DNA of 4,861 nt from a virus. Its lineage: Duplodnaviria; Heunggongvirae; Uroviricota; Caudoviricetes. The DNA lies in the IMG/VR virus record IMGVR_UViG_2617270974_000006. One strand, given 5' to 3'. Below are positions 1 to 4,861 of the stretch, piece by piece (position 1 is the stretch's first letter; every line of letters starts with the position of its first letter). The notes below the pieces were generated by a model. The model saw only the letters and a program-made list of their open reading frames with translations, searched no databases and had not been told where the DNA came from. The translations under genes were made by a program, and so were the position numbers.

Positions 1-1
1 C

Positions 2-442
2 AGGTCTGCGGCAAGTAAGGCTCGCTGTGAGCATTGTGCTGGTACTGGATTTCATAATGTATTGCGCGAAGTGGTGAAACACTCCAGAAGCGGGGAGTCT
101 GTTATCAAGGAAGAGTGGGTGAAGGAACTATGTCAGCATTGTCATGGTAAGGGAGAAGTCAGCACAGCGTGCAGAGGGTGTAAGGGTAAAGGTATTGTCC
201 TGGATGAAAAAAGAACCCGGCTTCATGGCACGCCTGTTTATAAGATTTGTGGGCGTTGCAATGGAAACCGGTTTAGCCGTTTACCAACCACACTGGCGCG
301 GCTTCATGTCCAGAAGCTGGTACCAGACCTGACGGATTATCAGTGGTACAAAGGATATGCAGATGTCATTGATAAACTGGTTACAAAGTGCTGGCAGGAG
401 GAAGCTTACGCTGAAGCACAATTGAGAAGGGTGACGAGATAA
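2..442 (+). CDS. Putative late-gene antiterminator Q-like protein, 5'-partial, with DnaJ-type zinc-finger repeats
   Basis: Frame 2 is open from the first base of the window with no stop, so the TTG at 62 in the ORF track is not the real start. The translation (CEHCAGTG, CQHCHGKG, CRGCKGKG, CGRCNGN) carries four CxxCxGxG-type repeats. It lies immediately upstream of a short non-coding region ending in an intrinsic terminator and then a lysis cassette, which is where Q sits in lambdoid phages. The Q assignment is positional plus motif-based, not a verified homology. Confidence 0.45.
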   Translation, partial: RSAASKARCEHCAGTGFHNVLREVVKHSRSGESVIKEEWVKELCQHCHGKGEVSTACRGCKGKGIVLDEKRTRLHGTPVYKICGRCNGNRFSRLPTTLARLHVQKLVPDLTDYQWYKGYADVIDKLVTKCWQEEAYAEAQLRRVTR

Positions 443-550
443 GCGATTTTCGCCGAAGATAACGACATAATACTTGTGTTTCTCAAAAAATATGGATAAG
501 ATTTTCTCAACGATGGGGCTTGTGTATCTATCGTTGAACAATTTTTACGA

Positions 551-573
551 CCTCGCTATTGCGAGGTTTTTTT
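551..573 (+). terminator. Rho-independent terminator, tR'-like, downstream of Q
   Basis: Seen directly: stem CCTCGC (551-556), loop TATT, stem GCGAGG (561-566), then a 7-T run (567-573) and a second T run at 578-584. Lying about 110 bp after the Q stop, it matches the position of lambda tR'. Confidence 0.6.
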
Positions 574-610
574 ATGGTTTTTTTCTATTCAATCTACATC
601 AAAATCAATG

Positions 611-619
611 TGTTATAAT
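611..619 (+). promoter_or_regulatory. Extended -10 promoter element (TGnTATAAT) for the cargo cassette
   Basis: Seen directly: TGTTATAAT at 611-619, a perfect extended -10, about 38 bp upstream of the ATG at 657. No good -35 hexamer at 16-18 bp spacing, which extended -10 promoters tolerate. Downstream of the terminator at 551-573. Confidence 0.45.
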
Positions 620-656: not shown

Positions 657-926
657 ATGAAACTGACCTCTATCCATCTTGAAATACTACGTCGAGTGAA
701 TGAATTGCAGCCAAAGGATTCTAGAATTCAGGCTGCATCATTACCTCATCTCTCAGCAAAAGAGGTTAATTTTGCTATTTCAGATCTTGCTGATATAGGT
801 TTTATCGATGTTATACGAAGCAAATCTGCCGAAGGTGGATTGATTGCTAATGAGATAACGTCAAAAGGTTTTGCTTTTTTGAGTGAGATTGGCGCTGAAA
901 AAAATTCATCGATGAGCACTCATTGA
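657..926 (+). CDS. Hypothetical small protein (89 aa), predicted winged helix-turn-helix-like
   Basis: ATG at 657 with AGGAG at 646-650 (6-nt spacer), stop TGA at 924-926. AT-rich codon usage unlike the flanking phage genes. The pattern helix (IHLEILRRVNEL), helix (AKEVNFAISDLADIGFI), hairpin (DVIRSKS...LIANEITSKG), helix is compatible with a winged HTH. Fold assignment is inference from the primary sequence. Confidence 0.7.
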   Translation: MKLTSIHLEILRRVNELQPKDSRIQAASLPHLSAKEVNFAISDLADIGFIDVIRSKSAEGGLIANEITSKGFAFLSEIGAEKNSSMSTH

Positions 927-940
927 TTTCTGCTTCAATC

Positions 941-958
941 GGCTGCCAATTGGCAGCC
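941..958. repeat. Perfect 18-bp palindrome GGCTGCCAATTGGCAGCC (7-bp arms, AATT centre)
   Basis: Seen directly. It lies 15 bp after the stop of the 89-aa gene and is not followed by a T tract. A 15/18-identical copy (GGCTGCCAAATGGTGGCC) recurs at 1964-1981. Confidence 0.6.
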
Positions 959-1123
959 TAAACTGTAAAGTGAATTTAAAATCGCCTACAATTGATGCTT
1001 AAATTTTGTTCTGTATCATCTGCAGGTTTAGGGATATCACAGTAGCTTTCTGACAAGAAGAGTTCTTTTCTTCTACCAATGAAGTGGTTATGTTAACCTG
1101 CGCCAAATCGAGACTGGTGCGGA

Positions 1124-1930
1124 GTGGAATCGAAAGTGTCATATTTTTACAGAAGCAAGAATATTTCAGGTGTTTCTATAAATGAAGATAGCTTGATTAG
1201 CTTAAGCACGGCAATTGTCGAACGCTGCGTTAAAATGAATGAGCAAGCTCAAAAGGAAAGTAGGGAAGTTTGTGCTCAATGTGTTTTTTTTATTTTGTTC
1301 GATGGTAAGGGGTATAAAGTTGATTCTATCGGTGAGCTTGTGAAATACTTTAGACAGGCCACTAGGATTGATCAAATAATTTTTACTATTGAAACTTATC
1401 AAAGTCGACAGTCTAACAGGATGAATGGATCTTGGATGGAGCTACGAATTGATGAGAGGAATTCAAATAGCAGCACAATGATTGTAGCATCGGAAGATAA
1501 TGAGTGGGTTGACTCGTTATGGATTACGATTCAGGATTTACTTAACAAGTGCAAAAATAAATTTAGATTTTTTAGAACAGCTTGGACTATGTTAAGTATC
1601 CAGATTTCAGGTGTGACAGTTGGCTTTTTGCTTAGCTTATGGACAGCCTCAAAACTGGCGCCAAAACTATCAATCGATGGTGCATTTGCTTTATCATTTA
1701 TTTGTATCTTTATTTTGTTTTCGAACTTATGGAGCTTTGCTATTCCATTAATAATTAAGCTTATCGACTTTTTGTTTCCTAGTGTTAAGTTTGTTATTAA
1801 TGGTAAAAATTACTTTCACTGGAGTGTCCAGGCTATAATTGGAGCGATTGCCAGTGCGGTTATATTGTATTTTATTAGCTCCATGTTGCTTTTTGCATTA
1901 GAAATGTTAAATAGCATCATTAAGAAATAG
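1124..1930 (+). CDS. Hypothetical membrane protein (268 aa as drawn): soluble N-terminal domain plus three C-terminal TM helices
   Basis: ORF 1124-1930, stop TAG 1928-1930, strongly AT-rich. Hydrophobic segments WTMLSIQISGVTVGFLLSLWTA, GAFALSFICIFILFSNLWSFAIPLII and AIIGAIASAVILYFISSMLLFALEML suggest three TM helices in the last ~110 residues. No catalytic motif recognised in the N-terminal ~150 aa. The start is uncertain: GTG 1124, GTG 1136 (GGAG at 1121-1124) or ATG about 1234. Confidence 0.7.
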   Translation: MESKVSYFYRSKNISGVSINEDSLISLSTAIVERCVKMNEQAQKESREVCAQCVFFILFDGKGYKVDSIGELVKYFRQATRIDQIIFTIETYQSRQSNRMNGSWMELRIDERNSNSSTMIVASEDNEWVDSLWITIQDLLNKCKNKFRFFRTAWTMLSIQISGVTVGFLLSLWTASKLAPKLSIDGAFALSFICIFILFSNLWSFAIPLIIKLIDFLFPSVKFVINGKNYFHWSVQAIIGAIASAVILYFISSMLLFALEMLNSIIKK

Positions 1931-1963
1931 TTAATGAATTAGTTATAATTACATCAATTCTAT

Positions 1964-1987
1964 GGCTGCCAAATGGTGGCCTTTTTT
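1964..1987 (+). terminator. Candidate intrinsic terminator closing the cargo cassette
   Basis: Seen directly: GGCTGCC (1964-1970), loop AAAT, GGTGGCC (1975-1981) gives a 7-bp stem with two G-U wobble pairs, followed by TTTTTT (1982-1987). It lies 34 bp after the stop of the membrane-protein gene. Confidence 0.5.
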
Positions 1988-1990
1988 ATT

Positions 1991-2014
1991 CCTCTCATTT
2001 CTATTTCTGAGAGG
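1991..2014. other. Inverted repeat CCTCTCA-N10-TGAGAGG upstream of the first holin-like gene
   Basis: Seen directly: 7-bp perfect arms at 1991-1997 and 2008-2014 with a 10-nt loop, no T tract after it. It lies between the candidate terminator and the RBS of the first lysis gene. Confidence 0.35.
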
Positions 2015-2038
2015 ACTCACTGCAATAAGAGGTGGCTA

Positions 2039-2425
2039 ATGTCCGATCCGATTTCCGGCACAGGATTAGCTGGTGGAGCCCTAACGGGCGCTAGTATTTA
2101 TGGACTGCTGACCGGAACTGATTACGGCGTTGTTTTTGGCGCATTTGCAGGGGCTGTATTCTATATAGCAACAGCAGCAGATCTGAGTGCATCGCGCCGA
2201 CTGGCATATTTTATCGTGTCATATATTGCTGGGATCCTTTGCTCTGGATTGGTTGGCTCCAAGCTGGCAAACTTGACCGGATACAGTGATAAACCTCTGG
2301 ATGCTATTGGTGCCGTAATCGTCTCTGCTTTAGCCGTTAAAATCCTGACGTTCCTGAATAATCAGGATATCGGCTCGCTGGGGGCGCTCATAACGCGCCG
2401 GGGAGGGTCAGGTGGAGCTAAATGA
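2039..2425 (+). CDS. Putative holin (128 aa, glycine-rich, 3-4 TM segments)
   Basis: ATG at 2039 preceded by GAGGTGG (2029-2035), taken in preference to the upstream in-frame track start at 1973. Stop TGA at 2423-2425. Small, multi-TM, with a charged C-terminal tail, and first gene of the lysis cluster directly upstream of the endolysin. Holin assignment is positional and compositional. Confidence 0.6.
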   Translation: MSDPISGTGLAGGALTGASIYGLLTGTDYGVVFGAFAGAVFYIATAADLSASRRLAYFIVSYIAGILCSGLVGSKLANLTGYSDKPLDAIGAVIVSALAVKILTFLNNQDIGSLGALITRRGGSGGAK

Positions 2426-2693
2426 CCCGACAGCAACTATTAATGCGCTGTTATGTGCTTGTGTTGTTATTACTCTGATGTTTTATCGTCGTGGTGATTC
2501 GCGGCATCGTCCGTGGGTTTCACGTTTAGCCTGGCTGATTACTGTTACATACAGTGCTGTTCCGTTGGCCTATCTCTGTGGGATTTATCCCCATTCCTCA
2601 TGGCCCATTATCGTGGCGAACACTATTTTTCTTTCCGTGCTGGTGGCTGTCAGAGGCAACGTTGCACGTCTGGTTGATCATCTGAGGCACTAA
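2412..2693 (+). CDS. Second small membrane protein of the lysis cassette (93 aa), holin or antiholin-like
   Basis: GTG at 2412 preceded by GGGAGG (2401-2406, 5-nt spacer), overlapping the end of the previous gene by 14 nt. Two to three hydrophobic segments. Its stop TAA overlaps the endolysin ATG as TAATG at 2691-2695. Function inferred from position only. Confidence 0.5.
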   Translation: MELNDPTATINALLCACVVITLMFYRRGDSRHRPWVSRLAWLITVTYSAVPLAYLCGIYPHSSWPIIVANTIFLSVLVAVRGNVARLVDHLRH

Positions 2694-3303
2694 TGAACCA
2701 ACAATTATTTCAAAAGGCGGCTGGTATTAGCGCCGGGCTGGCTGCGCGCTGGTTTCCGCACATTGATGCGGCGATGAAGGAATTCGGCATTACAGTACCA
2801 GCGGATCAGGCAATGTTTATCGCTCAGGTAGGCCATGAGTCGATGGGGTTTAGCGCCGTAGTTGAAAATTTTAACTACACACCATCTGCGCTTGTGGCGA
2901 CGTTCGGAAAGAGGATCACACAGCAGCAGGCTGATGCCCTTGGCAGAACATCCGGACATGCAGCTCGTCAGGATGCTATTGCCAATCTGGTGTATAGCAA
3001 CCGACTGGGTAACAAAGCACCAGGTGATGGCTGGAAATATCGTGGTAGAGGATTAATTCAAATCACTGGCCTCCATAATTATCGCATCTGTGGCGCGGCG
3101 CTGAAGTTAGATCTGGTGACTTCACCTGAACAACTGGAACAGGAGCTACAGGCCGCGCGCTCAGCTGCATGGTTCTACACCTCTAAAGGTTGCATGGTCT
3201 ACGGTGCCGATATTAATCGTGTTACGCGCATCATTAACGGCGGTCTGAACGGTATTGAGGATCGTAAGGTTCGATACAACAAGGCGCGGGCGGCGCTGCT
3301 GGT

Positions 3304-3307
<4 letters not shown>
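2693..3307 (+). CDS. Endolysin, glycoside hydrolase family 19 (chitinase-like lysozyme)
   Basis: 204 aa. The N-terminal region resembles phage GH19 endolysins as recalled from Salmonella and E. coli phages, with two Glu nine residues apart (E49 in GHES and E58 in VVENF by my count) as candidate catalytic acid and base. GAGG RBS at 2684-2687. Sits between the holin-like genes and the Rz-like gene. Confidence 0.85.

Positions 3308-4861
<1,554 letters not shown>

Follow-up and report, generated by a model that had tools for sequence, protein, structure and literature searches.

Two stacked morons closed by hairpins of a common phage terminator family probably fill the slot before the lysis genes of a lambdoid E. 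coli prophage

The 4,861-nt stretch of viral DNA analysed here, hereafter the window (IMG/VR record IMGVR_UViG_2617270974_000006), is by its gene content and order the late region, from Q to the lysis genes, of a lambdoid E. coli prophage, and two near-identical hairpins lie in it, one after each of two small accessory genes. The pair is probably ordinary phage architecture, namely two stacked morons that are each closed by a hairpin of one common phage terminator family, a reading to which we give a probability of about 0.7. No new mechanism is required for the hairpin pair, which would be textbook moron architecture stacked twice. As judged from sequence and conservation, hairpin 2 has the canonical form of an intrinsic terminator, is conserved and would be expected to terminate in vivo, whereas hairpin 1, because it lacks a U tract, is classed as a terminator-derived stem-loop and not as a terminator.

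Organization of the Q-to-lysis region

The window runs from the 3′ part of Q, annotated as 'antitermination protein' in E. coli 300033, to a lysis cassette and beyond (Table 1). The Rz-like gene at the end of this cassette is cut at ~3619 by an IS3-family element, and homology to IS-free prophages stops at the same position. Downstream of Q, the -10 hexamer and the pause/Q-loading motif are presumably PR′ and its promoter-proximal pause, by comparison with the lambda PR′ region; the motif AACGATGGG also precedes tR′ in L056-L062, the seven loci with homologues of the 89-aa gene that are described below, and in L152/L164. The tR′-like terminator (-13.7 kcal/mol, z -4.9) has a stem that co-varies in the positional homologue of relatives, and the cargo slot would extend from it to the holin leader, with 0-5 kb of cargo in relatives. 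The holin leader is kept in all Holin_8-type cassettes, including those without a terminator.

The slot is filled here by an AT-rich insert (~580-1990; 30-38% GC vs 48-52% in the flanks), which was found in 41 of 5426 complete E. coli genomes, at one site per genome and always with both genes. Identity among the copies is 99.5% or higher for the insert and 96-99% for the more variable flanks. Lysogens with the cassette include APEC O78 (NC_020163) and CFSAN061769. The insert had no match in the phage collection. Phages SKA5 and 118970_sal3 share the same Q and lysis genes and carry a different small gene in the slot, and their homology to the window picks up again at the holin leader (~1990). 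Neither the 41 genomes (41/41) nor the contigs examined yielded an excised or empty form between the hairpins.

A moron is defined as a gene with its own promoter and terminator that lies between phage genes and differs from them in GC content (Juhala/Hendrix; PMC3594210). The insert is present or absent at a gene boundary among otherwise homologous phages, its base composition is unlike that of the flanks, and a terminator is present; its candidate promoter is a sequence match, an extended -10 at 611-619.

Pfam gave weak wHTH matches alone for the 89-aa protein and no match for the membrane protein, whose relatives are few, and the PADLOC search for defence systems returned no match for either. 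Structure modelling of the membrane protein predicts an alpha/beta domain at the N terminus and three helices at the C terminus. The start of its gene at 1136 agrees with the PGAP start, and an ATG occupies the equivalent position in the homologous locus L010. This gene is broken in some strains.

Table 1. Features of the window, numbered from its first nucleotide
Feature	Position	Strand	Basis or remark
3′ part of late antiterminator gene Q, lambda type	1-442	+	PF03589, Pfam Antiterm E=7e-31
Putative late promoter PR′: -10 TAAGAT (497-502) and pause/Q-loading motif AACGATGGGG (509-518)	497-527	+	
tR′-like intrinsic terminator, GACCTCGC-TATT-GCGAGGTT + T7	549-575	+	terminator scan; left edge of cargo slot
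Predicted promoter block of the wHTH moron, extended -10 TGtTATAAT at 611-619	587-619	+	conserved
89-aa wHTH-like gene, first moron	657-926	+	weak DUF2513 / HTH_45 matches; phrog_32916
Hairpin 1, GGCTGCCAATTGGCAGCC	941-958	+	stem-loop of terminator type that goes with the wHTH moron; T tract absent here
Spacer and membrane-gene leader	959-1135	+	alignment to membrane-gene homologues; weak promoter-like site 992-1019 (promoter scan)
Membrane-protein gene, second moron	1136-1930	+	ORF opens at 1124 (268 aa); likely GTG start at 1136 (264 aa); phrog_30208
Hairpin 2 + T6, GGCTGCCAAATGGTGGCC at 1964-1981	1964-1987	+	intrinsic terminator directly before holin leader
Holin leader: hairpin UCCUCUCA/UGAGAGGA (1990-2015), then SD	1990-2038	+	right-hand backbone
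Lysis cassette: holin PF16931, second holin PF05449, GH19 endolysin, Rz-like spanin	2039-3633	+	Pfam, annotation

Sequence and folding of the two hairpins

The sequence-only reading had described two hairpins, one on each side of the membrane gene, with a T tract after the second alone, and both observations hold: the hairpins agree in 15 of 18 bases on direct comparison, and the tract TTTTTTATT follows hairpin 2 and has no counterpart after hairpin 1. In the repeat search they form the direct-repeat family D12 (941-959 / 1964-1982, 84% identical) and the inverted pair I12. The 13-mer GGCTGCCAANTGG, with at most one mismatch, matches only these two sites within the window, against an expectation of 0.02 per shuffled window. 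The earlier statement that such a pair is unlikely by chance is thus correct in relation to random sequence (the observed count was reached in 0 of 200 shuffles), but not in relation to the phage background, in which the stem is very common. Since this stem is among the commonest terminator stems of these phages, two terminators with the same stem are unsurprising.

Both hairpins have 7-bp stems with at least five G-C pairs, and they differ in what these stems are at the level of DNA and of RNA. Hairpin 1 lies 14 nt past the stop codon of the 89-aa gene and is a perfect 18-bp DNA palindrome, whose RNA pairs at all seven stem positions around a loop of 4 nt (-13.5 kcal/mol for each strand, z -4.2). 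Hairpin 2 starts 33 nt past the stop codon of the membrane gene and is a poor palindrome as DNA (3 mismatches); both stem differences pair as G-U in RNA, its seven pairs are reached only with these two G-U pairs, and it folds at -10.2 kcal/mol on the + strand vs -4.9 kcal/mol on the - strand. The first eight bases of the 3′ flank contain seven T in hairpin 2 (TTTTTTAT), as fits the U tract of an intrinsic terminator, and three T in hairpin 1 (TAAACTGT). The terminator scan of the window returned two terminator-like sites, hairpin 2 and the tR′-like site. No Rfam family was found at either hairpin, or at 1900-2000, at E<=1. An E. coli interspersed repeat (REP/BIME, ERIC) was considered and rejected, the cassette DNA being single-site per genome and without an Rfam family.

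Each hairpin goes with the gene upstream of it

Membrane-gene homologues with 79, 78, 62 and 52% amino-acid identity all lie just before a holin and are all followed by a hairpin and a T tract: GGCTGCC-AAAT-GGTGGCC with T6 in L007, GGCTGCC-AAGT-GGTGGCC with T6 in L004, GGCTACC-GCGACT-GGTGGCC with T5 in L042, and GGCC(C)AC-CTATA-GTGGCC with T5 in L010. The changes preserve pairing (G-U to A-U in L042, U-G to C-G in L010). The upstream neighbour of these homologues is a DNA methyltransferase and not the 89-aa gene, and no hairpin was found upstream of them. Homology of the window to these loci begins at ~1085, in their leader. The preceding stretch (959-~1085) is unique to this cassette, with no match in the phage collection, in any fetched locus, or in metagenomes besides the same cassette. 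Together, these loci point to hairpin 2 as belonging to the membrane gene upstream of it.

For the 89-aa protein, a full HMMER scan of 1.84 billion representative proteins gave two small distant homologues and no others, and no confirmed relative was present in the species-representative genomes; a profile search of viral contigs recovered the seven loci L056-L062, with 47-60% identity. In all of them the homologue is a single-gene moron, in the order Q, tR′, promoter block, gene, hairpin with T tract, and lambda-S-type holin. Despite the 47-60% protein identity, 31-32 of the 33 nt of the putative promoter block (587-619) are identical in these loci. Their terminators read GGCTGCC-ATTT-GGCGGCC-TTTTCTATTT or GGCTGCC-TTCT/ATCT-GGTGGCC-TTTTTCATATT, and because the wHTH homologues thus end in GGCTGCC-N4-GGYGGCC plus a T tract, hairpin 1 would go with the wHTH gene upstream of it.

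The exact 89-aa protein was not found outside this pairing, the membrane gene always being next downstream. A recurrent pair of wHTH and membrane genes was considered and rejected: in L039 a 39% homologue does have a wHTH gene next to it, but the partner of this wHTH gene is a TumE toxin. On the sequences compared, the wHTH and membrane genes were brought together in a single recent fusion and do not form a conserved two-gene system. Terminators from both module families contain GGTGGCCTTTTTCATAT and so appear to be related; nevertheless, the stem being so common, the likeness of the two hairpin stems could reflect convergence rather than common descent.

A common terminator family at the border of the cargo slot

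Scans of viral contigs for GGCTGCC-N4-GGYGGCC-TTTT and for GGCTGCC-N4-GGCAGCC-TTTT each gave at least 120 loci (at least 240 in total), compared with 5 viral loci for a scrambled stem of the same composition, and the loops among the loci with the terminator stem were of more than 50 different kinds. At least 29 other contigs have the hairpin directly against the holin leader that is also present in the window. About 10 of these 29 carry no cargo, the hairpin following tR′ within a few nucleotides; the others carry unrelated cargo, whose end coincides exactly with the 5′ base of the hairpin. Between the stop codon of Q, which is of lambda, 21 or 82 type, and the hairpin lie 144 to 5148 nt. Many phages have the hairpin at the right-hand end of the cargo, and a few have it at both ends.

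When 80 contigs with near-identical holins were sampled without bias, 22 distinct upstream variants were seen. About 45% of the near-identical holin cassettes (SKA5 type) have no terminator before the leader, so a shielding terminator is not obligatory; the remaining ones have a terminator at exactly that position, with the T tract kept and with differing stems (GGCTGCC, GGCCGC/GCGGCC, GGCTCGC/GCGGGCC and GGCCTCT/AGAGGCC). Among 14 positional homologues, some of which may be independent replacements rather than diverged copies, all changes keep pairing except for one loop-closing mismatch in L308. Pair 4 is U-G, U-A or C-G, pair 5 is G-C, G-U, A-U, C-G or U-A, and both sides of pairs 6 and 7 are changed in one locus each. 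In 11 of the 14 the fold is more stable on the + strand than on the - strand, and 6-7 of the first eight bases past the stem are T in 13 of them, the sole exception being hairpin 1 with 3 T.

Two hairpins around cargo were also seen in L200, L228, L302 and L117. These loci are considered plain stacked terminators, because both copies keep their T tracts. The exact 18-mer of hairpin 1 occurs in 16 viral contigs, of which 12 are this cassette and 4 are unrelated (3 of the 4 with T tracts), and in at least 120 bacterial species across many phyla when one genome per species is counted; a T and/or A tract adjoins it in 99 of the 120 species listed. The recurrence of the 18-mer as a terminator across phyla argues for convergence rather than a repeat family, and on this distribution it is a generic terminator stem-loop that would have arisen repeatedly. 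This outcome largely agrees with what the sequence-only reading had named as evidence against itself, a motif that is common and not tied to this locus: its stem is present in at least 240 viral contigs, and the 18-mer itself extends well beyond phages.

Alternative explanations for the hairpin pair

The hairpins had also been proposed as a pair of operators for the 89-aa wHTH-like protein, which in this reading would control the membrane gene, and hairpin 1, a perfect 18-bp palindrome beside a gene with weak wHTH similarity, speaks for it. This does not extend to hairpin 2, which is a poor DNA palindrome whose differences pair as G-U in RNA. Across relatives the stem is kept by wobble or compensatory change while the loops vary freely, which argues for a structure of the + strand RNA and not for a DNA palindrome. 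The same hairpins occur elsewhere without a wHTH gene and without a membrane gene; in the contigs that carry the hairpin at the same holin (at least 29), the DNA upstream is unrelated to the cassette, so that no wHTH gene is adjacent. Both sites follow stop codons, neither overlaps a promoter, and no half-sites were seen at the promoters. The 33-nt promoter block, near-invariant among diverged homologues, would be a better candidate for an operator. Overall, the operator pair is very improbable, and this part of the sequence-only reading is not upheld.

Recombination sites are somewhat less remote, though still improbable. The hairpins would then be PeSL-like and loosely attC-like elements, short homologies by which cargo could be inserted, exchanged or excised, the membrane segment having entered by a single crossover at the hairpin, and the layout of hairpin, insert, hairpin and T tract is the expected product of such an event. 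Diverse cargo ending exactly at the hairpin 5′ base in many phages, the hairpin-cargo-hairpin layout of other loci, and a constant stem with hypervariable loops that is at least 24 times commoner than the scrambled control would all suit this, and PeSL-mediated shuffling offers a precedent (PMC2839356). However, ordinary double crossover between the conserved flanks, Q/tR′ to the left of the slot and the holin leader to its right, is already enough to explain the swapping of cargo, the over-representation could be due to sequence preferences of terminators (the same 18-mer being a terminator in unrelated phyla), and 18 bp with 3 mismatches is a poor substrate for homologous recombination. Both copies keep T tracts in the other double-hairpin loci, and all 41 genomes and all contigs examined carry both genes, with no excised or empty form among them. 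The earlier suggestion of a repeat-bounded cassette survives to the extent that the hairpins mark module boundaries, but each would be the 3′ end of its own upstream module and not a terminal repeat: in other contexts no hairpin lies upstream of the membrane gene, and no excision between the copies was seen. More weight, yet still well short of an even chance, goes to hairpin 1 as a selected intercistronic element, either a block to 3′-to-5′ exonucleases or a partial attenuator, by which wHTH mRNA would exceed membrane mRNA although both derive from one transcript. Its very stable perfect stem (-13.5 kcal/mol) 14 nt past a stop codon would fit this role, as would the Watson-Crick pairing here of both positions that are wobble-paired in relatives, and the breakage of the membrane gene in some strains fits a costly (possibly toxic) product. 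Its invariance in all copies might be added, but carries no weight, because the whole cassette is at least 99.5% identical; in addition, the wHTH-membrane pairing appears to be a single recent fusion.

Comparison with known systems

Hairpin 2 resembles the intrinsic terminators of lambdoid late regions in its GC-rich 7-bp stem, tetraloop and U6 just past a stop codon, as well as in its better fold on the sense strand, its pair-preserving changes and its position between Q/PR′/tR′ and the lysis genes, while hairpin 1 has no U tract, the defining feature of the class. In the papers searched, no terminator ahead of the holin was found under the name of a 'second late terminator'. Like morons, the insert is AT-rich, polymorphic among similar phages, and equipped with a conserved, predicted sigma-70-like promoter block and a terminator at its end; it differs in that two are stacked here, the first without a terminator U tract, and perhaps as one operon. 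The stx genes of Stx phages sit between Q and the lysis genes, as the insert does.

In the PeSL cassettes of T4-type phages a stem-loop is coupled to a strong early promoter, and recombination and mini-circle formation have been shown for them (PMC2839356). The present locus is like them in having small non-essential genes between repeated terminator stem-loops in a hyperplastic region, but neither a promoter next to the hairpins nor a product of recombination was found. At 18 nt, the hairpin is also without the features of attC. Pas sRNA genes lie directly upstream of prophage holin/lysozyme operons (bioRxiv 10.64898/2026.05.13.724894). They are likewise short transcription units with an intrinsic terminator directly before an E. 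coli prophage holin. In the window, 1900-2000 has no Rfam match and nothing that suggests an sRNA.

Proposed organization and implications

In the preferred reading of two stacked morons, module 1 would comprise the promoter, the 89-aa wHTH-like gene and hairpin 1, and module 2, joined to it head to tail, the leader, the membrane-protein gene and hairpin 2 with T6. Both hairpins would fall within one very common family of phage intrinsic terminators, GGCUGCC - variable loop - GGYRGCC - U tract. A shield for the lysis genes is the most likely role of hairpin 2: on the one hand, in the lysogen it would halt transcripts that start in the cargo or get past tR′, so that they do not extend into the lethal genes for holin and endolysin; on the other hand, after induction, Q-modified RNA polymerase would pass through it, by analogy with lambda. 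It is established lambda late-gene biology that Q-modified polymerase reads through terminators. Hairpin 1 would be a stem that travels with the wHTH gene, its U tract absent through the joining of the membrane module or through later change. It probably terminates weakly and is possibly vestigial, serving at most as a 3′ stabiliser or a weak attenuator. As the missing U tract probably makes for poor termination, the wHTH promoter may also drive the membrane gene, and with read-through at hairpin 1 the two morons may be co-transcribed as one operon. The earlier proposal of an attenuator followed by a terminator is thereby retained for its second element, a canonical terminator; attenuation at hairpin 1, which has no T tract, is putative and probably weak.

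The GGCUGCC-loop-GGYRGCC terminator could further be imagined as a short portable boundary element for gaining, stacking and swapping accessory genes before the lysis cassette, much as PeSL cassettes do in T4-type phages, which we regard as a long shot. If true, hairpin 1 without its T tract would be the scar of such an event, and the constant stem with hypervariable loops, the excess over the scrambled stem and the cargo that ends at the 5′ base would be explained.

For the annotation of this locus, the analysis suggests a cargo slot that opens at tR′ and closes at a second terminator before the lysis genes, occupied by two stacked morons, and a terminator-derived hairpin in such a place should not be mistaken for an operator or for the end of a mobile element. 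More generally, one terminator stem marks the right border of a variable slot of 0-5 kb, with three Q types, in many enterobacterial prophages, and this border would be a useful landmark for finding prophage accessory or defence genes.

Putative regulatory sites around the morons

The GGCTGCC/GGYRGCC stem shared by the two hairpins on either side of the membrane-protein gene is constant across the compared viral contigs (L063-L307), where it is combined with more than 50 different versions of a hypervariable 4-nt loop and lies ahead of genes of tail-like, head-like and several holin families. In viral contigs it outnumbered a composition-matched scrambled stem at least 24-fold, an excess that could come from terminator sequence preferences or from recombination-driven spread.

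The 33-nt block of the wHTH moron was 31-32/33 nt identical in loci whose wHTH proteins were just 47-60% identical, and is probably the moron promoter, judging from its sequence. As a candidate site for binding by the wHTH protein it is also preferable to the hairpins, which the sequence-only reading had considered as paired operators. The 89-aa protein itself (657-926) belongs to an extremely small family: a search of 1.84 billion representative proteins found two homologues, both small and distant. The same search also gave weak repeated matches within proteins of 1100-1800 aa. On the opposite strand, a promoter-like site takes its -35 element from the loop region of hairpin 2, downstream of the membrane gene, and its predicted RNA would be antisense to the 3′ end of that gene. 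However, the site probably arose by chance, because sequence comparison found no conservation of its -10 in L004 or L007.

Features located in the window
Feature	Position	Strand
Putative promoter block of the wHTH moron, ATTCAATCTACATCAAAATCAATGTGTTATAAT, extended -10	587-619	
Promoter-like site, TTGGCA - 16 nt - TGtAATTAT	1945-1972	minus
Holin leader, containing a hairpin with arms UCCUCUCA/UGAGAGGA	1990-2038	
Insertion sequence of the IS3 family; its two transposase ORFs overlap	3620-4861	

Lysis genes

The leader hairpin of the holin gene was kept across all Holin_8-type lysis cassettes, including those without an upstream terminator. The complementarity of its CCUCU arm to the holin Shine-Dalgarno sequence AAGAGGUGG suggests translational control of the holin. 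The Rz/Rz1 spanin genes are disrupted by the IS3-family element, inside which Rfam isrC is matched (3686-3808, E=1e-37), and the alignment to IS-free prophages ends at position 3619; lysis is probably impaired in this prophage.

Membrane-protein gene

Some strains carry a broken membrane gene. In L014 and L017 (~3480-4274) it was called as 164 aa, and the L014 copy has an 11-nt deletion, while the Hafnia/Citrobacter copy has an in-frame TAA directly before Met38 (L007 2990-3000) and was therefore called as only 231 aa. A homologue of the membrane protein with 39% identity lies away from lysis genes in L039 (1-3804), with GmrSD-like, HEPN and TumE/wHTH toxin-antitoxin genes as neighbours. These defence-island-like surroundings hint at an anti-phage role for the membrane-protein family.
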